Shown here: piece after piece, positions 1,172 to 33,057 of the stretch
How positions within the stretch are numbered: the first letter of the stretch is position 1
Layout: each line of letters starts with the position of its first letter
Notes under the pieces: model-generated
The model's input: the letters and a program-made list of their open reading frames with translations, nothing else
The model's database searches: none
Told to the model about the DNA's origin: nothing
Made by a program: the position numbers and the translations under genes
NCBI GenBank assembly: GCA_903824675.1
Contig: CAIJXV010000006.1
Span: 46,695-110,694, forward strand
From: an uncultured bacterium
GTDB lineage: Bacteria; Verrucomicrobiota; Kiritimatiellia; CAIKKV01; CAIJXV01
Direction: 5' to 3'
DNA length: 64,000 bases

Positions 1172-1298
1172 GAGGGGTCTCCTTTTAGAAAGTATGTATC
1201 AAAAGCCGATGGGGAGTGCAACTCGGGTTCGATTTGCCGTCGGCCAGATGAGATCCGTCGCAGGGTCGCCTATCCGGACGGATAGGCGACGGACGGCA

Positions 1299-3570: not shown

Positions 3571-3732
3571 GGTCGGGCTCTCCAGGTGTCCGGGTGATGC
3601 CGGAATTCGAGGAACGGTAGGAGAAACGGGCGGCGATGGAAAGAACAAATGTTGACACCGATTTTTTTAGTGTGATACTCGAAAGACTTTGTCAATAATG
3701 GCGCGATGTATCGACGCTAAAAGGACTTGAGC

Positions 3733-16308: not shown

Positions 16309-17399
16309 CTCAGTCTGACGTCGAAACATCCCGGTCTCTGCCGATACGTGCTTGGTTAGAACGACTTATTGACCACGGCGAGGTTGATGAGGTCTTTTAT
16401 GGAGTTTTGATCGAACAGGTTGGGTATATGACCCGGACAACGGCTAGACATATCCGGACAGAAACCACTGAAGATCTGGTTTCGCCGGAAGATTTGGCCG
16501 GCGATTTCCTGCTTCACTTAAAAGCGGAAAACAAGCGCGAAATTCAAACTTTGTCCGGGCTAAAAAGGGAGTTCTCCAAGTTTTTGACCGACCGGAACGA
16601 TCCCGAATCGAAGGAGCTTTGGGAGATCATCAGCGATGCTTTGCACCAGGGAGGGCGTGAAGGGTGGGCTCGGCGCTTGGATGACTTGCATAGTGAAAAG
16701 AATCATAACCAGGCCGTTTGGACATCGGCTTTGCCGGGATGTGATCAAAAAACGTTGGATTTGGCCCAATTCGAACAGAGGGCAAAAAAGATTCCCTGCT
16801 TTTATCCCGGCCGGACAGCGGGACGAATTCTCCCTCCGTCTGATGCGGTTGAATTGATAAGGCGCCTTTTGAAAGAAGCCCAAGTTCCGATTGTATTTAG
16901 CATTCTCTTTAACGAAGCCCGACGCCATGTAGTATTTGGACTCAGATGGGCGGAGGAACTTGGGGAGGAAAGTGAGGCCGAAGATGGCGAAAAACCTCAA
17001 ATCCAACATGCAGATCGAAGTTGGGAGGTGGTGCAATGGGCCAGGGAAGAATCGGCGGAAAGGGGTGATCGGATTTGGTGTGCCATCCAAGCCCTGAAAA
17101 CTGAAAAAGTGCTTTGCCTTTATATACTTCCCAAGCATTTTCTGGGACAGAAACCGACTTTGTCCGGTATGGGCGATTTCCGCCGGACCAGTGAAAATAG
17201 TCTAGAAATCATGTCGATTCTTGCGCAAGAGCTTAAAGTGGAACGACTTAAATCTGATGCGGCACATCAACGGCCTGATGTTATTGACGAGCAAGACGAT
17301 GATTTTATCAAAGCGTGGACGGTAATGATTCACTTTGTAGCCGAACGGCTTTTGGTGAAATGTTCGGAAAAAGGGTTCAACCCGGCCTTATCATCATAA
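16260..17399 (+). CDS. Hypothetical protein (gene A of island operon); acidic patches, no recognisable domain
   Basis: Long ORF of intermediate GC. An alternative start at 16305 (MTQSDVETS) is coupled to the upstream ORF. Glu/Asp-rich segments EEESEAEDGE and DEQDDD. Confidence 0.6.
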   Translation: MHTRCAPCSQTGYPQMTQSDVETSRSLPIRAWLERLIDHGEVDEVFYGVLIEQVGYMTRTTARHIRTETTEDLVSPEDLAGDFLLHLKAENKREIQTLSGLKREFSKFLTDRNDPESKELWEIISDALHQGGREGWARRLDDLHSEKNHNQAVWTSALPGCDQKTLDLAQFEQRAKKIPCFYPGRTAGRILPPSDAVELIRRLLKEAQVPIVFSILFNEARRHVVFGLRWAEELGEESEAEDGEKPQIQHADRSWEVVQWAREESAERGDRIWCAIQALKTEKVLCLYILPKHFLGQKPTLSGMGDFRRTSENSLEIMSILAQELKVERLKSDAAHQRPDVIDEQDDDFIKAWTVMIHFVAERLLVKCSEKGFNPALSS

Positions 17400-17413
17400 C
17401 GGGGGGATTTGAC

Positions 17414-18343
17414 GTGAAAAGTCAGCCTATTCGGCAATTAGAAGGATTATTGAACAGGGTATTGCCGTCCAAAGGCACTCTGGAATCTGTCGAAAACATA
17501 CAAAACATTGGTCCCGGACAAATGTGGTCGACGAAAGCCATCTTGGATTATCCGATTCATTTTGGGGAGCATGAACTGTTTTGGGTCCTGGTAGTTCAAT
17601 CCCGAGTAATGACGCTGAATAAAGAAAGGGTCCATTTGGTTGCCCCACTTTTATCCGATCCGCATCTGGCGGGACCAGAGGATATCATTTTGCCGAAAGA
17701 AATCATGGGGCATCGGGTGGCATTGGCGTGGGGCAGTCGGATAACGGTATTGGAGAAAAGTCTGGACCGGTGTGAGGGTAAACTCCCTAAAAAGTGGTGC
17801 GATGTTGTGGCGCAACTATCCGCAAATGTGGATTTTCATGTTCTCCGGACCTCCGGCATTGAAATGGGATTTGATTATCTGGACAACCATGATATCCGAT
17901 TTGCCTATCATGAGAACTTGGTGGACCGATTGAGTTACCTGCAATCGCCAGTTATACAGGTTGTCTGGCATGAACAAGCGGATGTGATCCGCATGGACAA
18001 ATGGTTCTCCCGAATAGAGCGGGCGAAATGCCAGTCCTTGGCTGCGGCGACGGGAAGTGCTTTCGAAGAAAGTCTCTATTACCGGGTAGTCGGCAAAAAA
18101 CTGGTCATCAAGGTTGTGCTGGCAAGCGACTGGACCCACGTTCAACTGTTGATCCTGAATGAGAAGGGGGAACTCGCCCCTGAACTGGATGGGTGCCAAG
18201 TGGTCAATACGGAAGGCAAGGCTGTCGGAAAGCCCATCAATGATGCGCAGGTATTAATCGATCTAAACGAAATGCGGTGGGGATGGAGTCTGGTGGACAA
18301 AGATGAGACGAGCCGTAAAATCGAGTATCTGCCAAGCCCATGA
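17414..18343 (+). CDS. Hypothetical protein (gene B of island operon)
   Basis: GTG at 17414 preceded by a GGGGGG SD 7 nt upstream; the track's earlier ATG at 17315 would overlap gene A. The stop TGA overlaps the ATG of gene C (ATGA). Confidence 0.55.
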   Translation: MKSQPIRQLEGLLNRVLPSKGTLESVENIQNIGPGQMWSTKAILDYPIHFGEHELFWVLVVQSRVMTLNKERVHLVAPLLSDPHLAGPEDIILPKEIMGHRVALAWGSRITVLEKSLDRCEGKLPKKWCDVVAQLSANVDFHVLRTSGIEMGFDYLDNHDIRFAYHENLVDRLSYLQSPVIQVVWHEQADVIRMDKWFSRIERAKCQSLAAATGSAFEESLYYRVVGKKLVIKVVLASDWTHVQLLILNEKGELAPELDGCQVVNTEGKAVGKPINDAQVLIDLNEMRWGWSLVDKDETSRKIEYLPSP

Positions 18344-20400
18344 AATTCCCTCCCTTCAGTTATGCCGCTTTACACGAAGAATTACGACTCCACCCTGACT
18401 CCGTATCCGTTTTTACGACAATGGAACTGAAGCACTTGACGCGGATTCCCCCTATCGATCATTCACTTGCCGAGGTGCTAACCGCCGAGGCCATCTATCG
18501 GGAATCAATCAGTCGGTTCTCGGGTGAGTTTATGAGCGAGATCGAGCGTTTGTCGTGCGTGGATGATTATCAACGCATTAAAACAGCCTGGGGTGTAAAA
18601 GGCGAACCCAAATTGGAACATTTCGGGGACTGTCTGCGGGGCCTGGTGTCGGATCCGGTCGCACAGAGAGCCGGAGAACGCCTAGCCACCTTTTGGATGG
18701 CCGACGGGTTGATTCCCGTAGTTTGTAAGCGAGCCGGTGCTTGCGAAGCAATCCCCATCCCGTTTTGTTTACGGTTTGAGACAAGTGTGCACCCGGGAGC
18801 GATTGATTTGGCGGAATGTCCGATTCCGAAATGGGAGCAGGGAGTCCGGGTTTTACGCAAAGAACTGAAGGAACCGGGATTGGTCATTCAAGTATTGCAT
18901 GCGTTGGGACCGCGCGTGAACAACTTGCATGGAAACAGCTTCCAGTTACCGGTTTGTCTGGCGTATGCCCAGAAAAAGGGACGGGTGTCCGGTCGGGAAG
19001 TATTTCACTTTTTGGCCACTGGGGCGGTAAGTGCCGGGTGTATTCGCAAGGTCGACGCACTGGATGAAAAGTTGATCTTGGCGCGGAAACTGGGGCTTGT
19101 CTTTGTGGGTCCGGGGCTGGCGGAGGGCGAGGGCTTGTTCCCGATACAATCTGGGGCTCCATTGATTGCCGTTTGGTCCGCTTTAGGACAAAACGCATTG
19201 AGCGTTGGGCGCGTCAGGATTACGGGGCCCGCGTTAATGGACCTGATCCGGTGTTTGAGGGATGATTTGCATAATGGTGCGGTTTCATTGAAGGACGCAT
19301 CCCGAAAATGGGCTGTTTATACCCGGTATCTGAGCAAACTGGAGGCGGATTCGCCCTACCGCCAGGAAGCTCAACTGGAGCTGGTGCTTTTGAAAGGGGT
19401 AATTCAAACCCATTCAGGAAGTGCGTCCAAAGCTGTTCGCAGCCTGGCAAAGGCGTTTAAAACTGCGATCACATCAGGTGTTGATAATTTAAGCCTGATC
19501 AAGTTGATGGCCCATCAGATTGTCGCCTTAACCGACATCGGTCGATTTGAAGCAGCTGAGGTTTGGGGTTGTCGCGCCCGCCGAGAGTTGGGAAAAAAAT
19601 TCCGAGGGAAGGCGGAGGACCGTATCCGAGCGAAAATGACGCTAAATGGCGTATTGGGAGGGCAGGTGTTTCTGCAAAAAGGCTTACTGAAGTCTGAATA
19701 TGCGTCCCAAAGCCGAGTAATGTTGGTAAAGGCGCTGGAAGATGCTTGTCACCTACGGGAAACCCGAGAAATTCTGCGGGACAGGGTGCAACTCTATTTA
19801 TGGGAAGCTCTTTATAGGCCGGCCGATGCCCTATTGAATTATAGGGGGGTGGAGCAAGATTTATTAAAAGTGACTCCTGACGACCGATGGATGGCGCATC
19901 AATATCTGAAACGGCATCGCTGGCTGGCGGCCTATCGCCTGATTTTAAGCGGACTGAAAACGGAAGGACAACCTGAAGAATGGGATCTTCCGGAACCTAT
20001 GGTGGGGCCAGCCGGTTGGATTCGAGCGACGGCCTTGAAATATAGAGCCACTTGGCGAGCACGGTTGGGCGACTATGTCGGGGCCAAGACCGATTTTGAT
20101 GCGAGTCTTGGGCCTTGGACGCACATGATCGGCAAAAGGCGAATCATCATTTGCCGGGAGCCCTTGATTAGGTTCATTTCAGGCACCATTGCACATGAAG
20201 CGTGTCGATCCTTATCCGACTCAAATGCCAGGGCGAGCCGAGAATACCGAGATATTGCCGACATGCTATTCGAAGGGTGCATTCCAGCCCGACTAAAGGG
20301 ACCATTTTCGGCTCGACAATGGCAGGTAATGAATGCAAAAGAGTGGGTAAATCGGTCGCAGCCTGTTCGGCCGGATTTGCGCTGCCAAATAGTCTATTGA
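18340..20400 (+). CDS. Protein with Lon-like (S16) Ser-Lys protease domain, no ATPase motif, long helical C-terminal region
   Basis: Residues ~198-255, HGNSFQLPVCLAYA...GREVFHFLATGAVSAGCIRKVDALDEKLILARKLGLVFVGP, align with the Lon proteolytic core DGPSAG...[36 protein letters not shown]. Ser200 is at nt 18937-18939 and Lys244 at nt 19069-19071. No Walker A in the protein. 686 aa. Confidence 0.6.
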   Translation: MKFPPFSYAALHEELRLHPDSVSVFTTMELKHLTRIPPIDHSLAEVLTAEAIYRESISRFSGEFMSEIERLSCVDDYQRIKTAWGVKGEPKLEHFGDCLRGLVSDPVAQRAGERLATFWMADGLIPVVCKRAGACEAIPIPFCLRFETSVHPGAIDLAECPIPKWEQGVRVLRKELKEPGLVIQVLHALGPRVNNLHGNSFQLPVCLAYAQKKGRVSGREVFHFLATGAVSAGCIRKVDALDEKLILARKLGLVFVGPGLAEGEGLFPIQSGAPLIAVWSALGQNALSVGRVRITGPALMDLIRCLRDDLHNGAVSLKDASRKWAVYTRYLSKLEADSPYRQEAQLELVLLKGVIQTHSGSASKAVRSLAKAFKTAITSGVDNLSLIKLMAHQIVALTDIGRFEAAEVWGCRARRELGKKFRGKAEDRIRAKMTLNGVLGGQVFLQKGLLKSEYASQSRVMLVKALEDACHLRETREILRDRVQLYLWEALYRPADALLNYRGVEQDLLKVTPDDRWMAHQYLKRHRWLAAYRLILSGLKTEGQPEEWDLPEPMVGPAGWIRATALKYRATWRARLGDYVGAKTDFDASLGPWTHMIGKRRIIICREPLIRFISGTIAHEACRSLSDSNARASREYRDIADMLFEGCIPARLKGPFSARQWQVMNAKEWVNRSQPVRPDLRCQIVY

Positions 20401-20409
20401 GGTTCAGCG

Positions 20410-21255
20410 ATGAAAGATCAGTCCGATCCCAAGGTGCTGGTGCCCGAAAGTTTTCGATTAGCATCAGACTACATGTATGGAATTGAGATTGCGTTGCGAG
20501 AATTGATCATCGAAGTAATGGATGCAGATCCAAGCCATGGTCGACTATGGTATCTAAAGTTGGAACCTGCACGTGACGTAGTGAAAAAGATGCGAGAAGC
20601 GAGAACCGATCAACTTCGCAACCGGCATATCCAATTCATCGCCTATCACCCCATCTATTACACGGATTTTCCCGATTTGCGAAAATTGTTTGAAAGTAGA
20701 CTTGTCTGGCCTCGATTTGAGCGATATTTATGGGGAAAAGAAGCATTTCTTGGCGACTTGGAAAAACTTGAACCAATTCGGAATTCGATAGCCCACCATC
20801 GTCCGGTTCCACATTCAACGGTCGAAATTATTGCTCCTGTATGGAATATGCTAAAAAATCGACTGGGTGAAGAGAAGATAAAACTCTGGGTACAGAGGCC
20901 GACGGTTGTTGAAAATATTAGGGAGAAATTAAACCACATCAACCAAGAAATTCACAAAACATGGGAAGTGATCTCCCAGAAAGAGTGCCAACTGCCGGAT
21001 ATATTAGAAGTCCGAGACTGTGTAGCTGCTTGGTGGTTCACACGGGAGTACTTGCTGCCAGATAAGGAAGAAATACCGGAATTTGATAGTATTTTAAAAT
21101 ATTTCAATAAATTGTCGGAATATAATCAAAACATTCCCTTCCATGAACGAGGATACGTCATCAAGATTCGCAAATGGGTCGGCGAAAACAAAATTGACGA
21201 ACTTGTTACTAATGCCGAATCCGTAATGGTGGAGGCCCTTAATGGCTGGGGGTGA
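20410..21255 (+). CDS. HEPN-domain protein, Abi_2 (AbiD/AbiF)- or Swt1-like
   Basis: LEPIRNSIAHHRPV contains the Rx4HH HEPN RNase motif (R124, H129, H130; nt 20779-20799). 281 aa, similar in size to Abi_2 proteins. AGG-rich SD upstream. Confidence 0.6.
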   Translation: MKDQSDPKVLVPESFRLASDYMYGIEIALRELIIEVMDADPSHGRLWYLKLEPARDVVKKMREARTDQLRNRHIQFIAYHPIYYTDFPDLRKLFESRLVWPRFERYLWGKEAFLGDLEKLEPIRNSIAHHRPVPHSTVEIIAPVWNMLKNRLGEEKIKLWVQRPTVVENIREKLNHINQEIHKTWEVISQKECQLPDILEVRDCVAAWWFTREYLLPDKEEIPEFDSILKYFNKLSEYNQNIPFHERGYVIKIRKWVGENKIDELVTNAESVMVEALNGWG

Positions 21256-21258
21256 AAG

Positions 21259-24048
21259 ATGAATATTTCGGACTTTGAAAAAAACAATAATACAATAGAA
21301 AATGATTTAACAAGGGCAATTAAAGAAACCCCTAACCCCTTTAATCCACATTCGCCAGTTGAAGATCCCGAATTACTAGTCGGCAGGCAAGCGTTATTGC
21401 TGGAAATTGACATGCAGTTGAAAGAGTGTCATGAAACAAGACGTTTTCGACATGTCATTGTTTCAGGGGAGCGCGGATCAGGTAAAACCAGTCTTATGCA
21501 GGTGATTGCGCAAAAGTATTATAAGAAACAGTGTTTATGCCAAATTAAAATTGAATCCGACACGAGCCTGCGCGATCCGCTTTTGTTTCGGCAGATATTT
21601 CGCAAATTAATTGAAAGTCTTTTTAGTCAGACGTCGGAACGTTCGCGCGATATATCATCAATATTTCGCGGAAAGACTGATAAAGTATTTCAAAGAACCA
21701 TTAGTGATCTCGAAAAATATAGTCCCGGAATAAAGGACCAGGTTTTTGCCTTTCCAGAAATATACTTCGAAACCAAGGACATACAGGCAGATGCAATGTT
21801 TGAGATTAAAAAAGCCCTTAAAGCGGATATTGCCATTATCGCTGATAACTTGAATGTCCCACTTTTTATTCTGGTAGACGCTTTTGGAGGGGCCGAAACA
21901 AATGCTGAATTTATTTGCATTCTAGTGTCCCTATTTGAAAAGGTCAATAACGTTTGCCTTTTGACTATTGCTTCTGCTGAAACGATTCAGGTGTTGCACA
22001 ATAAATCAGAAACGCTCATTCGAACCGCAAAGAAATATGACATGCCTCCCTTGACGGCTGATGATATTCGCGCCTTATTTGTAAAAACTTTACTTCAAAA
22101 AGATTTATTTAGAGAATCCATTCAAAAAGCTTTGGCGACGACGAAATGGGATGTCGCCAGTTGTGTGGAATTTTCGCCGTTTTGGGGTGAGTTCAAGTAT
22201 CAAATAAAACCCGAATTAATCGCGCAATGTGCGCAGGGCAACCCATATCTTACAATGATGATGCTTTATGTTGCCTTCAAGAAAGCGAAGGCGACAGATA
22301 ACAAGGTAATTGCTTTTGATGCTGAGGTCTTAAAGGATGTTTTTGTTGAATTGCAATACGATCAGAAATATCAACCTTATCAAAAAACCTTTACGTGGAT
22401 CAAATCATTGGGTTCTCGTAAGCGACTTCTTTTAAGTTTTTTGCTGCAAATTAGGACGCCCATTAAACTCGAAGATCTTTTTGCATTTGAACTTTTGATT
22501 CACCATGAGGATTTTGTCGTCAGGAACGAACTTCTTACGGCATACAGAGATTTCTGCCGACAAGGTGCTATACGCGAGAATACGGACGGCACATTTAGTG
22601 TGATGCTGAATAGCATTGAATGCGCCTATTTGACCCTATTTCAAGCTAACGACTTGAATGATTTTCGATTTTATAAAAACTTGACTGATTTTGTTTCCTC
22701 GGAATTACTTGGCCAACTACTTCGCCCTAAGTCTTCGTCGCTGATAAGTCGAAGAACCCAGTTTGAGGAATTCATCGAATTGCTAGAACGTGAAGCCCAA
22801 TTTCACCCTGACTTTATCCCCCTCATTAGTAAAGTTAGATATAAAGATGCTCTAGATGTGCTGTCTATGGATATAGATCAATCTGGGAATTCCAATATTC
22901 CTTTGCACACTGCTTCTGGCCGTTGTGCAATCTTGGCGTTCCCTAGGTGGACAGAATCAGTAAACCATCCCAAATCAAATTATAAAGATATACCCTTTGC
23001 TCAGGCTCTCTCTCAGATTCGAAATTCGGCAGACTGCAAAAACTTAATGCGCAGTAATCTTTGGGGTTTAAAATGGTGCATCGAGTATGAACGCCTGGAA
23101 GATGAAGCTGGGGTTCGTTCGGAAATCCCGTGGCTTCTCCCTTTTTTGTATTTATCATTGCAGATGCCTCGCATTCCAGTTCTGACAATTAAAGCGAGCT
23201 TTTCAGAGCGTCGCATTGAAATCGTCGCGAGTTGGATGGCGGCTTTACAAGGTGAAGAATCAATAGAGGATTCCATTCAGCCTCGCCTTGAGCAGCTTAA
23301 GGCTAATGCACTGTTAGCCAGTGTGGAGTTGTCTTGCTCATGGGAATATTATGAACCATTGTATCTACATGATCTACCGGATTCATTTTATGAGATGTCA
23401 CTCTATCACCCAGAGTATGAGAAGTACCACAATAATTCAAAGCGGGAAGGCCCTTTTGTCAAGGAACAACTATACCATTTCGGGGCACTCCTGGCTGATT
23501 CGTGGGTTCATATCTGCGCACAACGAAAGTTTCGTGAGATAGAGATCTTCTTGACGCACTACTCAAGACTTATAATTCTTCCGGACGTCCAAAGATATCT
23601 TAGCTTTCAAGAATATGATAAGTCTTTGCTCACCTGTCAGATCGAGTTCTCATTAATTGTTGCGGGTCGGTATGACTTGGCGACTGAACTTATTTCTGTC
23701 TTGTTGCCACATTTCAAGGATCCCGTGTTTTTGGCTCTAACACATTATGGGCTAGCATTAATTGCATTGTGCCAAAGCAAATTCGATGTCGTAGTTTCGG
23801 AATTAGCTGAAATCCGCTGTCTTATTTCTTTGCACGCTAATGATTTTAAGCGATTCACTGAGGCCGTTTCAGCTCATGACTTCGCCAAATATTCGTCCGC
23901 CAAAGAAGGTTGTTTCAGCACATATTTCTTTATTCCTCTTCCTAAGGTCGAAAACGGCGAGATCGTTTTTGCTATTTCTAATGCCGCGGACTTCACGGCC
24001 GTTTGTGATTCGGTCGATACGGCAGTTAGAAGGAAGCCAGCTCGATAA
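21259..24048 (+). CDS. STAND / AAA_16-type P-loop NTPase with ~650 aa helical C-terminal (sensor-like) region
   Basis: ELLVGRQALLLEIDMQL...HVIVSGERGSGKTSLMQ is an AAA_16-style N-terminus with Walker A at aa 70-77. The Walker B-like motif is VPLFILVDAFGG. 929 aa, conspicuously AT-rich coding sequence. Confidence 0.7.
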   Translation: MNISDFEKNNNTIENDLTRAIKETPNPFNPHSPVEDPELLVGRQALLLEIDMQLKECHETRRFRHVIVSGERGSGKTSLMQVIAQKYYKKQCLCQIKIESDTSLRDPLLFRQIFRKLIESLFSQTSERSRDISSIFRGKTDKVFQRTISDLEKYSPGIKDQVFAFPEIYFETKDIQADAMFEIKKALKADIAIIADNLNVPLFILVDAFGGAETNAEFICILVSLFEKVNNVCLLTIASAETIQVLHNKSETLIRTAKKYDMPPLTADDIRALFVKTLLQKDLFRESIQKALATTKWDVASCVEFSPFWGEFKYQIKPELIAQCAQGNPYLTMMMLYVAFKKAKATDNKVIAFDAEVLKDVFVELQYDQKYQPYQKTFTWIKSLGSRKRLLLSFLLQIRTPIKLEDLFAFELLIHHEDFVVRNELLTAYRDFCRQGAIRENTDGTFSVMLNSIECAYLTLFQANDLNDFRFYKNLTDFVSSELLGQLLRPKSSSLISRRTQFEEFIELLEREAQFHPDFIPLISKVRYKDALDVLSMDIDQSGNSNIPLHTASGRCAILAFPRWTESVNHPKSNYKDIPFAQALSQIRNSADCKNLMRSNLWGLKWCIEYERLEDEAGVRSEIPWLLPFLYLSLQMPRIPVLTIKASFSERRIEIVASWMAALQGEESIEDSIQPRLEQLKANALLASVELSCSWEYYEPLYLHDLPDSFYEMSLYHPEYEKYHNNSKREGPFVKEQLYHFGALLADSWVHICAQRKFREIEIFLTHYSRLIILPDVQRYLSFQEYDKSLLTCQIEFSLIVAGRYDLATELISVLLPHFKDPVFLALTHYGLALIALCQSKFDVVVSELAEIRCLISLHANDFKRFTEAVSAHDFAKYSSAKEGCFSTYFFIPLPKVENGEIVFAISNAADFTAVCDSVDTAVRRKPAR

Positions 24049-24197
24049 GGGGCTCCGTATTGGCCTCGCTGGCCCTTTGATTGTTCGGGATATGATTCTC
24101 CTTCTCCGCCAACTTTCTTGAATGGTGCTAATGTGATATACACAATTAGCATACATGGAGACGGCGACAGTAAACCCATTGTGCCACACTGATGGAA

Positions 24198-26336
24198 TTA
24201 CGAATAATTGAATGGCAATAAACGGGCGATGTCGCTGGCCGACGAAATATCCGAACCTTTGAGGATATCTGAAAACTGGTCTATCCCGCCCCATGCTTTC
24301 AGGTACGATGCAAATGGCGTGGACTGTGCGATGAGGCTTTCTGTCCAAGACAGGCATTCCTGGAAGTGTTTTGCATGCGATTGATTGTCTCCGCGAATCT
24401 TGTTGATGACGGTGATCAATCCCAATTGGGATAAACCAATGGTTTGCACCGTAAAGTGTAACTTCTTGGATATGCTGACACCTTGAGCCAAGATCTGAGT
24501 AGCAGATTCATATTGTTGGGCTTGTAAAAACAAATACCCGATCCACTTGCAGAGATGTTCGCATGGATGATCTTCGAATATGCGGGTCTTCCACGTATCC
24601 CAAATGGCTGCCGTCATGTTTTTGTCAATAGGGATGACGTCAGCGGCCACTGCGTCGCAATGGGCCGAAGCGATTCGAAGATAATTGATCGCATTGAATG
24701 GGGAGAGATTCGGGGTTGTCATGATTTCAGGTAGTCTCGAAACTAAATCTGCCGGAGTTGCAACAGGATTATTCCCTGAATGCCTGTTCATTTCAGCGCA
24801 GGCGCGGTTGAGATCGTCCGATTGCCAGGCCAGGGTTGCCAGATAGTTTGCCGACATTGAATAATATGAAATACCAGAGGGGAAATGTTTGATGCTTTTT
24901 TCGAAATATGCGCGAGCCATGTCTCCCCAGGCGGGATCCGTCCGCGCTAGAAAAGCGCAGGCTTGGCCCAGTGATCCTTGCATTTGGCCCAGAAGTTCAT
25001 CAGGTTCATCCGCTGGCACTTCGGCTTCGCGGCGGTCGACATCATCGCTGAACGTGGTTAGCACCTCTTCGAATCGGTAATCATTGAAAAGATAATTGAG
25101 ATTTCGGTTTCGGATTTCCAGTAAACGTTCTTTTCGCGTGTTGTGAGTTCCGGGTAGTAAATTCATCTGTTGTTGAAGCAATGTTGTCAGGCGGGTTTCA
25201 ATGTCTTTTTGCGGATTAACGTTGCCTTGGTGATTATGGCAGGCGGCAAGATCACTCAGACCATCTGCCAGATAATTTGCCCAAACACGTTGATTTTCGA
25301 TGGAACCCTTCGCCCTCAGGTTGGCCTCGGCGATGTCGGTCAATTGATGAAGGAGTTTCTTTGCACCATCCAGATTTCCGGGTTCACGAGTGCGGCTAGC
25401 GATGAGAAAGCGGGTATAGGCGAGTAATGCGGATGTTTCGCGCATGAGTATCTGACTGTCGTCTTCGCGTTTTAGAGCCTGGATCAAGCGGGAATAATCG
25501 GGATGCCCTTCTGTAGTCGGTAAATAACGCCGCAAATAATCGGCGGTCGTTGCGTACTGTTTGTTCTCCAAAAGGCGCGCGACTTCGTGATCGTAATGCC
25601 GGCGATAGTCGCCAAACATGAATTCATCGGGATTAGTTCGCTCGACTATTGTCCCGTCTGGTGTTTTTTTGCCGCCGCGCAGAAGACAGCATACGAAGTC
25701 CGCTGCGATGAGGCCTGGATTCCGATCCCCAATACCCCACCGTAATAATAATCGATTTTCGGCATTCAATCTTCTGGTGAATGAGATGGCTGGCGAGTCG
25801 CCAGAAAGGATCTGGTCTTTGATATAGTCCAATAGGCGAGGCATGTAGTCGGGATAGTTTGAGTTGATGGTTTCTGCGATGGTTCGTTGTGCAACCATTA
25901 TTTCCACAGAATCAGCATTTGGGCATCGCGTGAAGAGTGTTTCCAGAGCCTTTCGCGTAGCGGCAACCAAATTCAAGACATAAGTGGCCTGCGGAGAAGT
26001 CTCAAATCGCTTGCCGGTATTTCTTGATGCGAAAAAAAAAGCACTTGAACCGCAGATGCCTGTAAAAACGGCATTTGTGAAGGCTTCGAGATCCCGCCTT
26101 GACACTGGGCCGGCGACTCGGAGGTGGCCTTCTAACAACTTGCCGCAATGATAATGATCGGGATAGATGAATTTAATGCGGGAATTTGAGTTAAAAGCTG
26201 AAAGTTGGTCGACATGCAATGCCTTCCACGCCTGATCATCAAGGGTGCTACAGATGCCCCCTACAAGAGAAGATGCCTTTCGAGTGATCCCTTCATCAAA
26301 GGAGCCGCTCTCGTCTATGAAAATGAAATATTTCAC
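24198..26336 (-). CDS. DUF3800 N-terminal domain protein with long TPR-like helical C-terminus
   Basis: The N-terminus MKYFIFIDESGSFD matches the characteristic DUF3800 start (M.Y..IDESG). 712 aa, AT-richer than flanking genes, convergent with the STAND gene. Confidence 0.55.
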   Translation of the reverse strand: MKYFIFIDESGSFDEGITRKASSLVGGICSTLDDQAWKALHVDQLSAFNSNSRIKFIYPDHYHCGKLLEGHLRVAGPVSRRDLEAFTNAVFTGICGSSAFFFASRNTGKRFETSPQATYVLNLVAATRKALETLFTRCPNADSVEIMVAQRTIAETINSNYPDYMPRLLDYIKDQILSGDSPAISFTRRLNAENRLLLRWGIGDRNPGLIAADFVCCLLRGGKKTPDGTIVERTNPDEFMFGDYRRHYDHEVARLLENKQYATTADYLRRYLPTTEGHPDYSRLIQALKREDDSQILMRETSALLAYTRFLIASRTREPGNLDGAKKLLHQLTDIAEANLRAKGSIENQRVWANYLADGLSDLAACHNHQGNVNPQKDIETRLTTLLQQQMNLLPGTHNTRKERLLEIRNRNLNYLFNDYRFEEVLTTFSDDVDRREAEVPADEPDELLGQMQGSLGQACAFLARTDPAWGDMARAYFEKSIKHFPSGISYYSMSANYLATLAWQSDDLNRACAEMNRHSGNNPVATPADLVSRLPEIMTTPNLSPFNAINYLRIASAHCDAVAADVIPIDKNMTAAIWDTWKTRIFEDHPCEHLCKWIGYLFLQAQQYESATQILAQGVSISKKLHFTVQTIGLSQLGLITVINKIRGDNQSHAKHFQECLSWTESLIAQSTPFASYLKAWGGIDQFSDILKGSDISSASDIARLLPFNYS

Positions 26337-26609
26337 GGATTAAACACCTTATATCTTTGTTAGTTACTGATATTGCGGAATTCCCCTTCCCAGCGCAAGT
26401 TCGTTCTTTGAACCCTCTATACAACGGGACGAATTTCCAAGGAGGATTATTTGGGCAATTTCATCGGAAAAGTTGTTAGACGTCGGCTTCCAGTAATTTG
26501 CAACGTCTGCGATTGAATTCTAGCTACAAATGAAGATTTACCTGATGAAAACGATTTTAGGCCTTGGTTTCTGGTTCGGGTTGGTGGCGTTGTTGGTTTG
26601 GGAGGAACT

Positions 26610-28862
26610 GTGAAAAACGTATCTTCATATCGAGAAATACTGATCAATAAGACATGCCTGACCCGCGACCAATCGGCGATGATCGGGGCTTTGTCTCAAT
26701 TTTTTGATTCTGATCAAAGCCGGGTCTTTCTTCTCAAGGGTTATGCCGGAACGGGGAAAACCTATATCCTCCGGCAGATCGCCGAAGCCCTGTCGGTCGC
26801 GAAACTGCCGTTCTGTCTGCTGACCCCCACGGGGCGTGCGGCGCGTATCCTGGGTAAACGCACCGGCTTCCCCGCGCGGACCATTCATAGCCTGATGTAT
26901 GCCATGAACCAGGTACGGGAATATGAAAAAGATGAGGAGCGCTTTCAACTCCACTTCGAATTGTCCGATCCCAGTGGGATCGATAGCCGGATGGTTTTTC
27001 TGGTGGATGAGTCGTCCCTGATTGGCGATCGGGAAGGTGAACAGGAATTCTTGCGGTTTGGGTCGGGTCGCTTGCTCAAGGATTTTATTGATTATACGCG
27101 GGTGGGAGTGTCAGGGCTGGAAACGCGGATCGTATTTGCGGGGGATCCGGCCCAATTGCCGCCGGTGAATGATAACATTTCGCCGGCATTGTCGTCCGAA
27201 TATTTGAAGAAGACGCACAATTTGGTGGCCCAAACAGCGGAATTAACCGAGGTGGTGCGGCAGAAGGGTGGAAGTCCGGTTCTGCGCGTGGCTACGGAAT
27301 TGCGCAATAGTCTAGCGAATGGCCGGGTTAACAAGCTGGCGGTACCGGAGGAACCACCGGCCATCCGGTCAATCCAGCCCGCGGACGCCTCGAAATTGAT
27401 CGCGGAGGCATGTCGGGTGGATGCGATGGCGGAGGAGGTGCTGGTGACCTACAGCAATGAACTGGCGTTGAAATACAACCAGGCGGTGCGCGGTCATCTG
27501 TATGGGAATGAACAGGCTTCGGTACGGGTGGGGGACCGGGTGATGGTGAACACCAACAATCCGTGTTGGGGCCTGATGAACGGTGATTTTGCGGCGTTGC
27601 TAGGTGTCGCGCCTGAGCCCGAGATCCGTCAGGTTGCAGTTCGGGGGCAGGACGTCCAGGCGCTCATCTTCCGACGGGTGACGGCGGGTTGGCTGAATGC
27701 GGAGAACCAGCCGGTGCGACTGGAATGCTTGGTGATGGAAAATCTGCTGGATTCGCGCGAGCGGGATTTGACCCGGCCGGAAATGATGGCGCTCTACGTG
27801 GATTTCAAGAATCGGAATCCAGATCTGAAGCCACACACGCGCGATTTTGAGACGGCGCTACGGGCAGATGAGTATTTCAACGCGTTACGGGTGAAATATG
27901 GTTATGCGGTGACCTGCCACAAGGCGCAGGGTGGGGAGTGGGACCGGGTGATCGTGGACTTTCGGACCGGGGGAGGGTGGTCAAATCCCGCGTATTTTCG
28001 CTGGTGCTATACGGCTATAACGCGGGCCCGGAGTGAATTGCTGACGATCAATGCGCCGCAGTTTGTCCATTCCTGGGTGGGAATTCGGCGGGTGGGGGTG
28101 GGGAAAGGGGAGGGGAAGTTGTTGGTTGCTGCGGTGTTGGTTGATAGCGGGGAGGATGAAGGGATGGAGCGGAAGCCAAAGTGCTCGGTGGATGAAGCGA
28201 GCGGTGAGATCAGTGCGGGAACGCCCGGCTGTACCGGGGAACAACAAGATGAAGACAAGGCCGGCTGGCCGGGGGTCAAGTGGGCAGAGGGACATGAGCC
28301 GTTGAAACTTAAAGCCAATTGCTTTGCGGCGATGTTGCGGGCACAGGGTTTCGAGGTGGGTGTGCTGGAGCATGGCAACTATTTTGAACGGTACACAATT
28401 ATGGACGGCGCGAGACCGATCAAAATCCAGGTCTATTACGATGGAAGGATGCGATTCCGTGTACCCCAGCCGATGCCCCGCGGCAAGGTTTCGGTGGATG
28501 ATCCGGCTTTTAAGAAAATCGCAGCGTTATTCCTGTCGGCGATCCCCGAGGATGGCGGAATGGCTGAGGAAGGGGCCAAACCCCAAGCGGTTGAGTTGCG
28601 GGCAAAACTGGAGGAATTGCGGGCGCAGGGAGTGGATGTGTTGCGGCTGGATAGCGGGGAATATGTGGATCGGGTGACCTTGCGTCGGGAAACGTCGGTG
28701 GCTGAGGTGGATTTTTATCATGATCGCAAAGGGCGTTATACATCCTGGCAGATCATGCCGACCCGCGATCCTGAATTTCGGGGATGGTTGACCGGCCGGA
28801 TCGAGGATTTACTGATGACGCCGGAACAAAGTGCCGTGCAAGGTGTGGATTTACTGGAATGA
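26610..28862 (+). CDS. RecD/TraA-like SF1B DNA helicase (AAA_30 + UvrD_C_2) with ~270 aa C-terminal extension
   Basis: Walker A LLKGYAGTGKTY, Walker B FLVDESSLIG, motif FAGDPAQLPPV, and VTCHKAQGGEWDRVIV. Start uncertain (GTG at 26610 with GGAGG upstream; the track used TTG at 26598). Confidence 0.8.
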   Translation: MKNVSSYREILINKTCLTRDQSAMIGALSQFFDSDQSRVFLLKGYAGTGKTYILRQIAEALSVAKLPFCLLTPTGRAARILGKRTGFPARTIHSLMYAMNQVREYEKDEERFQLHFELSDPSGIDSRMVFLVDESSLIGDREGEQEFLRFGSGRLLKDFIDYTRVGVSGLETRIVFAGDPAQLPPVNDNISPALSSEYLKKTHNLVAQTAELTEVVRQKGGSPVLRVATELRNSLANGRVNKLAVPEEPPAIRSIQPADASKLIAEACRVDAMAEEVLVTYSNELALKYNQAVRGHLYGNEQASVRVGDRVMVNTNNPCWGLMNGDFAALLGVAPEPEIRQVAVRGQDVQALIFRRVTAGWLNAENQPVRLECLVMENLLDSRERDLTRPEMMALYVDFKNRNPDLKPHTRDFETALRADEYFNALRVKYGYAVTCHKAQGGEWDRVIVDFRTGGGWSNPAYFRWCYTAITRARSELLTINAPQFVHSWVGIRRVGVGKGEGKLLVAAVLVDSGEDEGMERKPKCSVDEASGEISAGTPGCTGEQQDEDKAGWPGVKWAEGHEPLKLKANCFAAMLRAQGFEVGVLEHGNYFERYTIMDGARPIKIQVYYDGRMRFRVPQPMPRGKVSVDDPAFKKIAALFLSAIPEDGGMAEEGAKPQAVELRAKLEELRAQGVDVLRLDSGEYVDRVTLRRETSVAEVDFYHDRKGRYTSWQIMPTRDPEFRGWLTGRIEDLLMTPEQSAVQGVDLLE

Positions 28863-28876
28863 CGGGATGATGAGCG

Positions 28877-30802
28877 ATGAACGAGGTAAAAACCATATTT
28901 CAGATGCGCCGTGAGGGACGATTGGCTGAAGCCCTTGAAATGGCTCGAACCTTTTGCGTCGCGAACCCGGCGGATTCCTGGGGTGTGAAGGCGCTGGCCT
29001 GGGTTCTGCGCGACCTTATTCTCGGTTGCCTGAAAGCGAAGGATCGGTCCGGTGCAACGGATTTATATCTGGAATTCGCACAATTACCCATTGGGGAAGA
29101 TGATATCGTCTTGGTCCAGACGGCCGATTGGCTGAAGAGTGCCGTGGACGATCCGGTGCGGCCGCTGTTGGACCAGGCAAAGCAATCTCAGGAAGCGGGC
29201 GATTTGGGTGCAAGTCTCGCGATTCTGCGGGATGTGGTTAGGCAGTATCCGCAATCGGAGCAGGCCCGGTCAGCGTTGGGGTGGGCGATTTACCGGGTCT
29301 TACACGCGATGGGACGGGAAGAGCATCCTGACCGACAGGCGGTTCTATCCTATTTGCGGGAATATCGAGCATTGTTTCCCCAACCCAAACCAGGCACGTT
29401 ACACTCGGCGATTCTGAATGCCGCCACCAAGCTGAGCGATGACTTGCCGCAATTTCCCCGTTTCTTTTTGTGGTGGGGTCCGGATAACTTTCAGACGGAG
29501 GATGCCCGGCCATTTTGCCCAAAGGATTCAGATCAGACATTTCCGAGCCTGGTTGAAAAAACGATCAAGGCGCTGTATCGCACCTGTAAAGGGCTTGAGG
29601 ACCTGGAAGTCGTGGGGCGGTGTGCTGATTTTGTAAAACTCTGGTTGCCGCGGTTTCCTGAGCAAGAATGGTTTGGGTATTATTACGGCCGGATGCTTAT
29701 TTTCGCGGGGCGGCTGGAGGAGGCGCGGGGGTACTTGATGCCGATCATTCGCAAGAAGCAGTCGGAATTCTGGGCTTGGGCGGCACTGGCCGACACCTTT
29801 GGGGAAGCGGCTCATGAAGAGCGGGTGACGTGTCTCTGTCAGGCGGCCCGGTGCCCTATTCATGACGAGTCCTTCAAAGTTGGGGTCCACACGGCGCTGG
29901 CTGAATTGCTGGCCCGGATGAATAAGAAGTCCGAAGCCCGTTGGGAACTCCAGACGGTGGTGAAGATCCGCGCCGAGAAGTGGTGGAAAATAACATCCGA
30001 AATTCAGGCGATGCAGGCAGCTGATTGGGCGGTGGGTGAGCCGGCGGATGACGGGAATCAGTCCTTATACGAGGAGTATGGGGCTCGGGCCTCATCCATT
30101 TTATGCGAAGGGTTGCCGTGGGAAAATGCCATCGTATTGGAAGTGTCAGAGGCCCGACCGTCTGATGGGCCGGAGCGGCGAGCCGTGCCGCCACTGGTGA
30201 TGATTGGATTAGGGAAAGGACCGCGTTTGACGACGCTCCGATTAAAACAGAATTTTTCGAGGGCAACGCGTGACGCACGGGTGGGGATGCCGGTGCGGAT
30301 CCGGCAAGATCAGGCGATGGAACACCCGTCCGTGATGGCGTTCGAATCGCGGGTCGGTACGGATTGGGATCTGCTTCCCGAACGGGCAGGGATCGTATTG
30401 TCGAATTCGGATGAGCGAGGGCTGACGATCATTTATCTCGGAGGCGATGAAGTAGTTTTTCTTTACCATGATCGGCTGCCGGAAGTCCAGGCCTATGAAG
30501 TGGGTGAATTTGTGAAAGTGCGGGTGATTTGGAATGAGCGGTCCGCTCGATTCAAGTGGCTGACCGTGGCTCTGGATTTGACTCCCTCGCCGGTGGCATG
30601 GTGCCGTGAGTTTGCGGACTCGGTTCGCCTGTCGGCCAACGGGGGGTTTGGCTTTGCGGGGGATGTATTTATCCAGCCCGGCTTGGTCAGCGAACAGGGG
30701 GTGACGGATGGATGCCAGGTGCGGGGAAGAGCGATTTTGCGCAAGAAACCGAACCGGGGCGAGTTGGGTTGGCAGGCGGTGACTGTGGCGGTGAAAGCGT
30801 AA
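28877..30802 (+). CDS. Large helical-repeat (TPR-like) protein with C-terminal beta-rich (OB-like?) region, unknown function
   Basis: 641 aa ORF starting 14 nt after the helicase stop. The N-terminal 400 aa are predicted helical repeats. No catalytic motif recognised. Confidence 0.5.
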   Translation: MNEVKTIFQMRREGRLAEALEMARTFCVANPADSWGVKALAWVLRDLILGCLKAKDRSGATDLYLEFAQLPIGEDDIVLVQTADWLKSAVDDPVRPLLDQAKQSQEAGDLGASLAILRDVVRQYPQSEQARSALGWAIYRVLHAMGREEHPDRQAVLSYLREYRALFPQPKPGTLHSAILNAATKLSDDLPQFPRFFLWWGPDNFQTEDARPFCPKDSDQTFPSLVEKTIKALYRTCKGLEDLEVVGRCADFVKLWLPRFPEQEWFGYYYGRMLIFAGRLEEARGYLMPIIRKKQSEFWAWAALADTFGEAAHEERVTCLCQAARCPIHDESFKVGVHTALAELLARMNKKSEARWELQTVVKIRAEKWWKITSEIQAMQAADWAVGEPADDGNQSLYEEYGARASSILCEGLPWENAIVLEVSEARPSDGPERRAVPPLVMIGLGKGPRLTTLRLKQNFSRATRDARVGMPVRIRQDQAMEHPSVMAFESRVGTDWDLLPERAGIVLSNSDERGLTIIYLGGDEVVFLYHDRLPEVQAYEVGEFVKVRVIWNERSARFKWLTVALDLTPSPVAWCREFADSVRLSANGGFGFAGDVFIQPGLVSEQGVTDGCQVRGRAILRKKPNRGELGWQAVTVAVKA

Positions 30803-30932
30803 GATTCCACATTCTCAACCACGACCTATCAACTTGTCGCCGTCCATCTTTAGCTTCATCCAGTGGCGGTCCCCGGCCGTGAGAATGATGGGGGGGTACC
30901 GTGTCCAGATGGAGTTTTTTGTCCGGTGTCAT

Positions 30933-30963
30933 AAAAAAACAGCCGGGCTATAATGCCCGGCTG
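30933..30963 (-). terminator. Rho-independent terminator for the minus-strand gene ending at 31002
   Basis: Perfect 9-bp inverted repeat CAGCCGGGC / GCCCGGCTG with loop TATAAT, followed on the minus strand by T7 (A7 on the plus strand at 30933-30939). Confidence 0.55.
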
Positions 30964-31001
30964 TACTTTGCACTCTATGCTGTTTGTGCGCTGGAAAGCG
31001 A

Positions 31002-31454
31002 TTACTTATCGAAACGGTGTTTGCCTTTGCCGGAACCGCCGCCCTTGGAACCCATCCTCGCCAGTTTGTTTTCCAGTTGTGAAATAGTGGCGCCGTCGTT
31101 CAATTCTTTGCGAACTCGCTGCATTTCTTCGTCTGAGGCTGGCCGCCCGGTGAATTTTCGAAAAGTATCGTTGATGACGAGTCCGGCTTCCGGACTGAAG
31201 GCGATCATTTTTCGGACCATTTCCGTCGATGTTCCCTGCTCGAGAGCGTCGCCGTAAAGTTTATAGGCTTGTTCATCGGCCGGGTGATTCAGAATATCGC
31301 GATAGAGCTGATCGACCACCATCCGCGATCCAACCCGTTTTTTAAGGCCATCGCCGCCACCCCCGCCTGCTTGTGCCGGGGTGGACAACCCCATGACGGC
31401 CCATACCAAAACCAACGGAATTGCAAGACGAAACGCCTGCTTAAAAAGTTTCAT
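31002..31454 (-). CDS. Secreted small protein with DUF4214-like domain
   Basis: N-terminal signal peptide (LAIPLVLVWAVMGLSTPAQA). DQLYRDILNHPADEQAYKLYGDAL...MVRKMIAFSPE resembles the DUF4214 consensus. Gly-rich tails. Confidence 0.45.
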   Translation of the reverse strand: MKLFKQAFRLAIPLVLVWAVMGLSTPAQAGGGGGDGLKKRVGSRMVVDQLYRDILNHPADEQAYKLYGDALEQGTSTEMVRKMIAFSPEAGLVINDTFRKFTGRPASDEEMQRVRKELNDGATISQLENKLARMGSKGGGSGKGKHRFDK

Positions 31455-31861
31455 GAAATACCTCCTGTAGTAAGTTGGTTAAAAGCTATCATTTTCAAGG
31501 GATCGGGGCAATTTCATTTTTGCCCGCCGCACCCCCGCGTGGATTGTATAAGTTAAATGCCGCACAAGTTTTCCTGATCTCCGACAGTTTTCACTCGATG
31601 TCGGCCCGCCCTCGGTGGCGGGCGTCTGGTGATGGAGGGGATTGGATCAGCGGACGCCGGGCGCAGAGGTCCGGCCTACAACAACATGAGATCCCTCGCC
31701 TTCGCCTGCCCAGAGGATGTCGAAGGGCTCGGGATGACAATGGGTAGGACGAGATCTCCGAGCGAGCCGGATCTGAATATAAGAGGGCTCACAGCACGCA
31801 GTTATAAAGCGGCATTTCACATTGCAATTCTGTCCCGCCGCATCCCCGATCCTCGACAACT

Positions 31862-32167
31862 CTACCGTAATTCGTTGTCGCGAGGGGGATTTCGTTTGAA
31901 ACGGTTAATAAAGCTTCGAAGGGCTTCACGGGCGAGCCGTTTCCCCTCCGGTCCAGCCATCCAGAGACCGAGGCCGAGCATGGCCCACGACAGGGCATAA
32001 CCGCCGAATCCGACGGCTTCCCAGAGGACGCGATGGGTTTTGGCGAACAAGGCGGCCCCCACGCCGACGCTGGCATAGCCAAACGGAATGTTGATGATCA
32101 GGAGCAGGACCCCGACACGGAATCGGAGGGTTGCGGGTGGGGGTGATTCGGGAGAGGGGATTGTCAT
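31862..32167 (-). CDS. Small membrane protein, hypothetical
   Basis: 101 aa with two hydrophobic helices. Could be spurious. Confidence 0.3.
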   Translation of the reverse strand: MTIPSPESPPPATLRFRVGVLLLIINIPFGYASVGVGAALFAKTHRVLWEAVGFGGYALSWAMLGLGLWMAGPEGKRLAREALRSFINRFKRNPPRDNELR

Positions 32168-32187
32168 TTTTTGGGGAATGGGTCGAA

Positions 32188-33057
32188 TCAGGTGGATTGT
32201 GACCAGCGGGCGAAGAAACCGGAGGGAAGGGGAGAGGCTTCGGGATGGGCGGAGAGCAACATGGTTCCGTATTCCAGTTTCCCGCCGAACCGTTTGATCC
32301 AGGGCGCCATCAGGTTTTTCATGAGGACCGGTGAAAAGCCCAGCGTATGGCAGGTGAACAGGACGAAGCGGGGGGGGTCGGCCGCGAGACGGGGGAGCAG
32401 ATTGAGGAACGGGACGAGGTGTTCATCGAGGATCCATTTCTCACAATTAGGTCCGTTGCCATAGCTGGGCGGATCGAAAATCAGGCCTTCGTAAAAACGT
32501 TGCCGGCGGATTTCACGGGCGGCGAATTTTTGGGCATCATCCGTGATCCAGCGGATAGGCGCGGCTTCCAAGTGGCTGGCCCGGGAATTTTCCCGGGCCC
32601 ATTCATTGATGTCGGCGACGGCATCGACATGGCAGACGGTGGCACCCGCCTGGGCGGCATGAAGGGACATGGCGCCGGTATAGGCGAAAAGATGGAGAAT
32701 ACGGCAGGGAGCGGATTGGACACGAATTTGGGATTCCACCCAGTCCCAATGGCAGGCGTGTTCCGGGAAAAGCCCGACATGGCCGAAACCGGTGGGTTTG
32801 ATTCGGAATTGCAATCCCCGCCATTGGATCGACCAGGCGGCCGGGAGGGGCCGGTTCATTCGCCAGCGGCCGTTTCCATCGCGTTGGCGCTCGAAAACTC
32901 CATCGGCCCGTTCCCACAATTCCGGTTTTTCTTTTTTCCAGATGGCGGCGGCCGCAGGGCGGGCGAGGATGTAGGCCCCCCACCGTTCGAGGCGTTGCCC
33001 GTTGCCGGCATCAAGAAATTCATAATCGTCGGCGTTGGGCGCAGTCAATTCCATCAT
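32188..33057 (-). CDS. Class I SAM-dependent methyltransferase, RlmI/YccW-like
   Basis: LFAYTGAMSLHAAQAGA (SAM-binding motif I) and the FDPPSYG motif. 289 aa. Confidence 0.6.
   Translation of the reverse strand: MMELTAPNADDYEFLDAGNGQRLERWGAYILARPAAAAIWKKEKPELWERADGVFERQRDGNGRWRMNRPLPAAWSIQWRGLQFRIKPTGFGHVGLFPEHACHWDWVESQIRVQSAPCRILHLFAYTGAMSLHAAQAGATVCHVDAVADINEWARENSRASHLEAAPIRWITDDAQKFAAREIRRQRFYEGLIFDPPSYGNGPNCEKWILDEHLVPFLNLLPRLAADPPRFVLFTCHTLGFSPVLMKNLMAPWIKRFGGKLEYGTMLLSAHPEASPLPSGFFARWSQST

Follow-up and report, generated by a model that had tools for sequence, protein, structure and literature searches.

Background

The closest described relatives of the gene pair examined here are the TOTE conflict systems, named in 2022 after their TPR, OB, TBP, and effector components (PMC12458937), and PDC-M16, a candidate family with an A and a B component in the PADLOC database. 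The TOTE characteristics used below were taken from the names of the corresponding Pfam families and from PMC12458937, which describes RNase H domains as common in these systems. According to the preprint that presents them, the PDC candidates were defined through 'guilt-by-embedding', i.e., through their embedding in BREX, DISARM, or type I restriction-modification (RM) systems, and PDC-M16 is among 145 candidates that are stated there to be untested; M16 is not mentioned in its main text (Payne et al., bioRxiv 10.1101/2024.01.29.577857). In the literature searched, no paper was found to mention PDC-M16, DUF7017, or the accessions of the Pfam families. TBP-like tandems are also present in RnlA/LsoA (the RnlAB anti-T4 toxin-antitoxin system), located N-terminally of a HEPN RNase. 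The N-terminal domains of RnlA, TBP1 and TBP2, are most similar to the N-domain of RNase H3, which binds RNA/DNA hybrids, and TBP1 is needed for substrate binding (PMC8266594). TALON, found largely in Chloroflexota, combines a TPR-CSD protein and a TBP protein with a YprA-family (superfamily 2) helicase, an inactivated RNase H domain, and a NERD nuclease. Finally, Gabija and Hachiman are two-gene cassettes with a superfamily 1 or 2 helicase that occur in defence islands.

The present study concerns a stretch of 64,000 nucleotides from an uncultured bacterium of the Verrucomicrobiota (GenBank assembly GCA_903824675.1, contig CAIJXV010000006.1, positions 46,695 to 110,694 of the forward strand), referred to as the window, in whose numbering all positions are given. 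It focuses on two adjacent genes of this window, encoding a helicase and a partner protein, which a preliminary description had put forward as a possible second defence system within a genomic island. Related loci are designated by L numbers.

Identity of the gene pair

Both proteins matched the PDC-M16 profiles over nearly their entire length and from adjacent genes: PDC-M16A matched the helicase protein with an E-value of 9e-197 (aa 21-720 against profile positions 5-668 of 691) and PDC-M16B matched the partner with an E-value of 6.6e-103 (aa 1-638 against profile positions 1-629 of 634). As full-length hidden Markov model (HMM) matches with such E-values, they go far beyond chance. In addition, all four TOTE components were retrieved. 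The first T is represented by a TPR protein with DUF7017, and the O by S1/cold-shock-like OB domains that are fused to this protein; the second T is represented by a protein with TBP-like domains, and the E by a superfamily 1B (SF1B) helicase with intact motifs, fused N-terminally to the TBP tandem. It is virtually certain that the pair represents a diverged, intact, two-gene short-form TOTE cassette, and that it is the same entity as PDC-M16. Its architecture is not new, as it has been named, has dedicated Pfam families, and is listed in PADLOC.

Like other TOTE systems, the window pair has all four components in adjacent, co-directional genes; unlike many of them, to judge from PMC12458937, this short form has no RNase H domain. 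Similarly, long-form TOTE relatives carry HEPN (DUF4145/Swt1) or Schlafen domains, which the window copy lacks, and the latter is further distinguished from its relatives by a long acidic linker. With respect to PDC-M16, the window pair matches both components over their full length and side by side, but is not embedded in a BREX, DISARM, or type I RM system; this defining context was recovered in relatives (BREX in one locus, RM or GmrSD genes elsewhere). In contrast to the window pair, RnlA/LsoA have neither a helicase nor a TPR-OB partner, whereas the window helicase has no HEPN domain. TALON shares the TPR-CSD and TBP proteins, but the helicase of the window pair is of the SF1B type and no nuclease accompanies it. 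As to Gabija and Hachiman, the comparison made in the preliminary description holds as an analogy only. GajA of Gabija is an OLD nuclease, whereas the window partner is a TPR-OB protein. Membership of Gabija was rejected, as GajB was matched with an E-value of 0.0025 over a C-terminal stretch of 67 aa only (aa 424-490) and no GajA occurred among the PADLOC matches listed for ten island proteins; Hachiman was rejected too, neither HamA (DUF1837) nor HamB being among those matches.

The two genes form intact, co-directional open reading frames (ORFs) on the plus strand, listed at positions 26598-28862 and 28877-30802, and they are separated by 14 nt (28863-28876), as described before. The helicase ORF was thus present as reported, although its start probably lies at GTG 26610 instead of at the listed TTG 26598, because a GGAGG Shine-Dalgarno sequence (26601-26605) precedes this GTG by 4 nt (aact) and public gene calls give the identical helicase protein a length of 750 aa. 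With this start, the TOTE-A (PDC-M16A) gene, encoding the SF1B helicase with its tandem TBP-like tail, extends over 26610-28862 on the plus strand (750 aa; PADLOC, Pfam, and public gene calls). The TOTE-B (PDC-M16B) gene, encoding the TPR solenoid with DUF7017 and three OB-like beta domains, extends over 28877-30802 on the same strand (641 aa; PADLOC, Pfam, and a structural model).

Helicase protein

The first part of the helicase protein (26610-28079, plus strand) is an SF1B helicase core of the RecD2/Dda/Pif1 type with all motifs intact. The four motifs quoted in the preliminary description were all found in the translation, namely motif I (GTGKT; aa 47-51 of the 750-aa protein, 26748-26762), motif II (DESS; aa 133-136, 27006-27017), motif III (GDPAQLPPV; aa 178-186, 27141-27167), and motif V (HKAQGGEWD; aa 437-445, 27918-27944), and the set was extended with motif Ia (PTGRAA; aa 73-78, 26826-26843) and motif VI (TAITRA; aa 468-473, 28011-28028). 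These motifs were nearly invariant in an alignment with 44 homologues, which had been gathered with the full-length helicase as query. Pfam matches comprised AAA_30, AAA_19, UvrD_C_2, and PIF1, besides a weak RecD-like SH3 domain. Furthermore, the core matched a Dda-like helicase of the PHROGs collection (E 2.5e-63), as well as the structures of RecD2 (3e1s) and Dda (3upu) in the PDB. Orthology with RecD2 or RecD was rejected, as the NCBIfam models TIGR01448 and TIGR01447 scored 105 bits against a cutoff of 500 and 51.8 bits against a cutoff of 310, respectively. The window helicase thus shares with RecD2, Dda, and Pif1 the full SF1B motif set and the AAA_30, UvrD_C_2, and PIF1 matches, but differs from them by its C-terminal TBP tandem and its obligate TPR-OB partner gene. 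To our knowledge, neither of these is found in RecD2, Dda, or Pif1.

The core is followed by a low-complexity, acidic linker rich in Gly, Glu, and Asp (28080-28295, plus strand; approximately aa 491-562, about 70 aa in the translation), the length and sequence of which vary among helicase homologues. The remaining C-terminal part, of about 190 aa, is structured, and Pfam recognized two stretches of TBP-TOTE in it (PF22721; E 1.7e-20). The linker had been noted in the preliminary description, whereas the uncharacterized and novel C-terminal domain of about 230 aa that was described along with it consists of this acidic linker and a catalogued TBP-TOTE tandem. Pfam, an AlphaFold model, and fold matches delimited TBP-like repeat 1 (28296-28541, plus strand), with one helix, three strands, and one helix, and TBP-like repeat 2 (28581-28814, plus strand), with one helix, four strands, and one helix. 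The model of the tail (aa 551-750), based on an alignment of the 44 homologues that was built without the Gly-rich linker, consisted of two alpha/beta repeats and had a pLDDT of 87.7. In Foldseek searches, no close solved structural relative of the tail was found, and the only near-significant matches were chains of Escherichia coli RnlA, in which both repeats were aligned (E 7.7e-3, probability 0.97) with a weak likeness (TM-score of about 0.3, 8-10% identity). The tail is therefore regarded as a TBP-like tandem that probably binds nucleic acid.

The same protein might be read as a conjugative helicase of the TraA/TraI type, associated with a relaxase and accompanied by an accessory protein, as the TraA_Ti, TraI, and Dtr relaxase models of NCBIfam gave weak matches. 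However, these matches covered the P-loop region only (approximately aa 38-151), with 14-34 bits against cutoffs of 590-2212; no relaxase domain was found in the Pfam scan; the C-terminus is a TBP-TOTE tandem and not a TraA C-terminal domain; and no relaxase, coupling-protein, or type IV secretion genes or other transfer genes occurred in the window island or in any of the related neighbourhoods examined, those on plasmids included. A conjugative helicase is therefore hardly conceivable. The preliminary description had named TraA homologues with a transfer function, or a lack of co-conservation of the two genes, as observations that would speak against a defence pair; neither was made.

Partner protein

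The partner protein had been described as having TPR-like repeats and a beta-rich C-terminus, and its predicted model (pLDDT 88.6) agreed with this. An all-alpha, TPR-like solenoid makes up aa 1-410 (28877-30106, plus strand) and was matched by Foldseek with OGT, SPY, and consensus TPR proteins. Within it, the DUF7017 region (PF22860) covers aa 264-405 (29666-30091, plus strand; Pfam E 5.2e-39), in addition to which Pfam found TPR_14/TPR_19 repeats. The most conserved aromatic motifs of the family are FPEQEWFGYYYG (29654-29689) and KQSEFWAW (29756-29779). The beta-rich part (aa 415-639) comprises three small beta domains on the plus strand, at aa 415-491 (30119-30349), aa 503-566 (30383-30574), and aa 576-639 (30602-30793). 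The third one corresponds to PF22707, S1CSD-TOTE-2 or 'S1/CSD-like domain 2 of the TOTE conflict systems' (E 6.7e-16, aa 577-637), and contains GGFGFAGDVFI (30641-30673), a sequence similar to the RNP1/RNP2 motifs of cold-shock domains. Partner homologues had an S1CSD-TOTE-1 match where the second domain lies; in the window partner, Pfam gave no match to it, although a beta domain is predicted there.

Co-conservation and divergence

A search for conserved pairs of a helicase and a partner revealed that the two genes are strongly co-conserved. Adjacency was retained in approximately 20 non-redundant loci, which represent at least six phyla as well as plasmids, and the two genes adjoined each other in every locus that was long enough to judge, except for one contig with Cas1-Cas2 genes and about 3 kb in between. 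On the JGI 3300059473 contig (carrying P0005), a gene for a helicase with TBP-like tail is directly followed by Cas1-Cas2, a gene-free stretch of about 3.1 kb that is possibly a CRISPR array, the TPR-OB partner gene, and an RVT_1 reverse transcriptase (RT) gene. When loci were searched with the partner (using an alignment of five sequences), an SF1B helicase ORF was located directly upstream of it and on the same strand in all ten reference-genome loci (Verrucomicrobiota, three Hymenobacter species, Bacteroidia, Prevotella, Spyradenecus, and Dakarella) and in a Logan contig, and the spacing of intact ORF pairs was -1 to 21 nt. Two TBP-TOTE repeats were present in eight of nine of these upstream helicases, DUF7017 in all eight partner ORFs scanned, and S1CSD-TOTE domains in seven of the latter. 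Furthermore, 119 of the 120 best helicase homologues contained PF22721. Similarly, a helicase gene is immediately followed by one for a DUF7017 protein in Variovorax, Pontiella, Riemerella, and a cyanobacterium of the Thermostichales.

The linkage is not restricted to this gene order. In five metagenome loci (L026-L029 and L031), the partner comes first and is followed by the helicase with its TBP-like tail, which was retained, according to an HMM built in this analysis, in the complete helicase ORFs (L027, L028, and L031). Moreover, a UvrD-type helicase replaces the RecD type on the TBP tandem in L037. The survival of the linkage through both reordering and replacement of the effector strongly indicates that the two proteins function jointly. 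The partners of the reversed-order clade (L026-L031) were 27-31% identical to that of the window, L030 being too short to show a helicase. In the rumen metagenome loci L037 (6-7532) and L038, HsdR (1071 aa) is followed by the UvrD-type, superfamily 1A helicase with two TBP-TOTE repeats (801 aa), a DUF7017/S1CSD partner (497 aa), and TerB.

The family is divergent. The partner family comprised 1,920 representatives (E-value of at most 1e-3) among 1.84 billion clusters at 50% identity. Identical metagenome contigs aside, the closest full-length relative of the window pair (L003) was 56-60% identical, and a fragmentary partner homologue was 53% identical to the window partner; best local alignments with other relatives reached at most approximately 46% (helicase) and 41% (partner) identity, and identity was mostly 31-39% over near-full length. 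The nearest partner relative among named organisms was that of an uncultured Verrucomicrobiota metagenome-assembled genome (MAG; L005). The neighbourhood of L003 was unlike that of the window: four overlapping upstream genes (162, 302, 337, and 456 aa; 170-3943) had no family matches, and the pair is followed by an AAA_21/AAA_15 ATPase gene (8352-9650). The same frame change, around aa 301 of the helicase, was found in Dakarella massiliensis (L014, 5823-7308) and in the metagenome contigs L033, L034, and L035; its presence in a genome and in three independent metagenome contigs indicates that it is a real frameshift (pseudogene or recoding) and not an assembly error. The partner ORF was truncated in L007.

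Genomic context in the window

The left flank of the window, up to 15.6 kb, contains genes for rhamnose and UDP-sugar metabolism, whereas a methyltransferase and a sugar kinase are encoded in the right flank. The TOTE pair is directly preceded by a segment of low GC content (16260-26336; 0.41-0.53 versus 0.57 in the flanks), which contains five co-directional genes (379, 342, 686, 281, and 929 aa) and probably represents defence-type cargo of its own, of more recent acquisition. Its products include a STAND/AAA_16-like NTPase of 929 aa (21259-24048) and a protein of 281 aa (20410-21255) with weak matches to Abi_2 and to PADLOC PDC-M34B; the 686-aa protein had faint SAVED/CARF-like matches only. 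A 712-aa ORF (24198-26336, minus strand), which is divergent from the pair, had no match in Pfam, PADLOC, NCBIfam, or PHROGs, and was found beside other TOTE cassettes only in contigs of identical sequence.

In contrast to its low-GC neighbours, the pair itself is chromosome-like, with a GC content of 0.57 and a GC content at third codon positions (GC3) of 0.63-0.65, so that the island is composite, and the pair appears to be its older resident. The suggestion of a second system inside the island was thus right in that the pair is a defence-type module distinct from the upstream genes, although low GC content characterizes the adjacent 16.2-26.3 kb and not the pair. Furthermore, no window neighbour recurred beside other TOTE cassettes, again except for contigs of identical sequence, indicating that the conserved unit consists of the two genes. 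A prophage or satellite origin of the pair was rejected, as the partner had no PHROG match and one match in a phage collection, the sole tRNA gene of the window lies 20 kb away, and no notable boundary repeats were present.

The intergenic region upstream of the pair (26337-26609, plus strand; 273 nt) is AT-rich (GC 0.425), is shared with the divergent 712-aa ORF, and contains the GGAGG ribosome-binding site. The promoter presumably lies in this region, in which a sigma-70 consensus scan returned no site on the plus strand. Downstream of the pair, a GC-rich hairpin with a stem of 10 bp (30939-30964), located between convergent genes and called by the scan on the minus strand with a T-run, is probably a terminator. 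An Rfam search of both strands of 24000-32200 retrieved no known structured RNA.

Neighbourhoods of related cassettes

Several related cassettes are located among defence genes. In L006 (157-14540), a GmrSD-like gene and the TOTE pair lie within a type 1 BREX operon, flanked by PglX and PglZ-BrxL. The pair adjoins a PglX/MmeI-like methylase and GmrSD in L028 (1083-16861), GmrSD and an AAA_15/21 ATPase in L027 (5554-14071), and HsdR and TerB in L037; including L024 (15654-15878), GmrSD-type (DUF262/DUF1524) nuclease genes thus occurred beside the pair in four loci. Toxin-antitoxin genes adjoin it in L017, L020, and L024. In addition, RT genes adjoin the pair in five loci, and among 120 flanking ORFs, RT was the PADLOC family found most often. 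In three Hymenobacter genomes and a Bacteroidia MAG (L008, 3610-5631; L010, 3325-5634; L011, 3745-5860; L009, 1181-5941), a homologous retron-like RT (35% identity, E 1e-60) is encoded upstream on the same strand and is followed by one or two unrelated ORFs and the TOTE helicase. The RT of L009 forms a fusion with a 'HisKin-conflict' domain, and behind it comes the gene of an iREC/receiver protein. L020 has an unrelated RT gene downstream of the pair.

Homologues of the partner were also found on plasmids, which raises the possibility of a selfish module of mobile elements, serving the maintenance or replication of a plasmid or phage-plasmid, or competition between elements by excluding rivals. 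The same two genes, with a 4-nt overlap, make up the plasmid cassettes of Acinetobacter, Sulfurospirillum, and E. coli. Partner homologues occurred on 72 plasmids, including IncY and other plasmids of enterobacteria and Acinetobacter plasmids of approximately 330 kb; one E. coli copy adjoins stbA; a partial match was found in one phage-like contig; and the helicase core resembles the Dda-like helicases of phages. Yet such a module is very unlikely. Indeed, the 72 plasmids were found among 72,556 plasmid records, and the phage-like contig was the only hit among 50,697 phage records; the copies seen were mostly chromosomal; no replication-initiator or partition gene was consistently linked to the pair; the partner has no counterpart in PHROGs; and competition between mobile elements would itself be a conflict or defence function. 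Several plasmid loci carry a long form, in which DUF4145 precedes the helicase with two TBP-TOTE repeats (907-979 aa) and the partner counts 474-647 aa, namely those of E. coli (L025, NZ_CP010154.1, 40427-44787), Acinetobacter baumannii (L023), and Sulfurospirillum (L024). In E. coli and Klebsiella, IncY and other plasmids carry the cassette next to insertion sequence (IS) elements and resistance genes.

Possible function

An immune or conflict role of the pair is rather likely, and it may be regarded as an anti-phage candidate. With somewhat more reserve, we lean towards a short-form TOTE conflict cassette that acts according to the following working model. Firstly, the partner would serve as sensor or adaptor and bind single-stranded nucleic acid with the three S1/cold-shock-like OB domains of its C-terminus. 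Secondly, the TPR/DUF7017 solenoid would hold either the helicase protein or an invader-derived ligand, and would serve assembly or ligand sensing. Thirdly, the helicase protein would be the effector, whose TBP-like tail may dock on invader RNA, RNA:DNA hybrids, or replication intermediates. Lastly, the SF1B motor would translocate in the 5' to 3' direction and unwind or strip these intermediates, thereby blocking replication of the phage or mobile element. This specific mechanism, in which nucleic-acid sensing directs an SF1B helicase, is proposed tentatively. In long-form relatives, N-terminal DUF4145, HEPN_Swt1, or Schlafen AlbA_2 domains precede the helicase, which, together with the RNase H domains reported in the TOTE literature, suggests that the helicase delivers or supports a nuclease in these long forms; in the short form, without HEPN or Schlafen domains, the helicase itself would be the output.

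Several observations weigh against this interpretation. The weakest point of the working model is that no nuclease or obviously toxic domain was found by Pfam in the window copy. Also, the third beta domain of the partner gave no BLASTP alignment with E. coli CspA, so that it is assigned to the cold-shock type by the Pfam model and the predicted fold. The literature searched contained no experimental test of TOTE or PDC-M16. Finally, the chromosome-like GC content and GC3 of the window pair, as well as the location of the Variovorax, Pontiella, and Riemerella pairs among housekeeping genes, with no or one defence-type neighbour, also fit a cellular role. The pair could then be a housekeeping module, in which an accessory helicase acts on R-loops, RNA:DNA hybrids, or stalled forks and the TPR-OB protein binds single-stranded DNA or RNA as its loader. 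The short form without a nuclease domain would suit such a role, as would the binding of RNA/DNA hybrids by the TBP-like domains of RNase H3, cited in PMC8266594. However, the family is patchy and so divergent that its nearest relative is 56-60% identical, it has decayed in some genomes (frameshifted helicase in L014 and L033-L035; truncated partner in L007), and on plasmids it accompanies IS elements and resistance genes. Furthermore, it is embedded in BREX, has RM, GmrSD, and RT neighbours, includes relatives with fused HEPN or Schlafen domains, and has its gene order and helicase class shuffled between loci. As patchiness, decay, plasmid carriage, embedding, fusions, and shuffling are typical of defence cargo, a housekeeping module is unlikely, and a conflict cassette is preferred.

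A more far-reaching version of the conflict cassette is that the short-form pair would provide nuclease-free immunity with the helicase as effector. The TBP-like tail and the OB domains would recognize hybrids or single-stranded nucleic acids originating from invading replicons or from RTs, and the motor would dismantle these without cutting. The recurring links, with a homologous RT in four Bacteroidota loci, with unrelated RTs in two others, and with the Cas1-Cas2 module between the two genes of one contig, could then reflect a functional coupling to systems that produce or process cDNA or R-loops instead of mere co-location in islands. This extension is speculative and should be considered decidedly improbable.

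Conclusions

The window locus adds a diverged, intact short-form example to the TOTE/PDC-M16 family and leaves the knowledge of this family unchanged. For testing, the copy on an E. coli IncY plasmid is handier than the metagenomic copy of the window. The family is widespread, as it occurs in at least six bacterial phyla and on clinical plasmids of Escherichia, Klebsiella, and Acinetobacter. If its short form indeed relies on a helicase as the only effector, guided by TBP-like and cold-shock-like readers, this would represent an unusual immune output.

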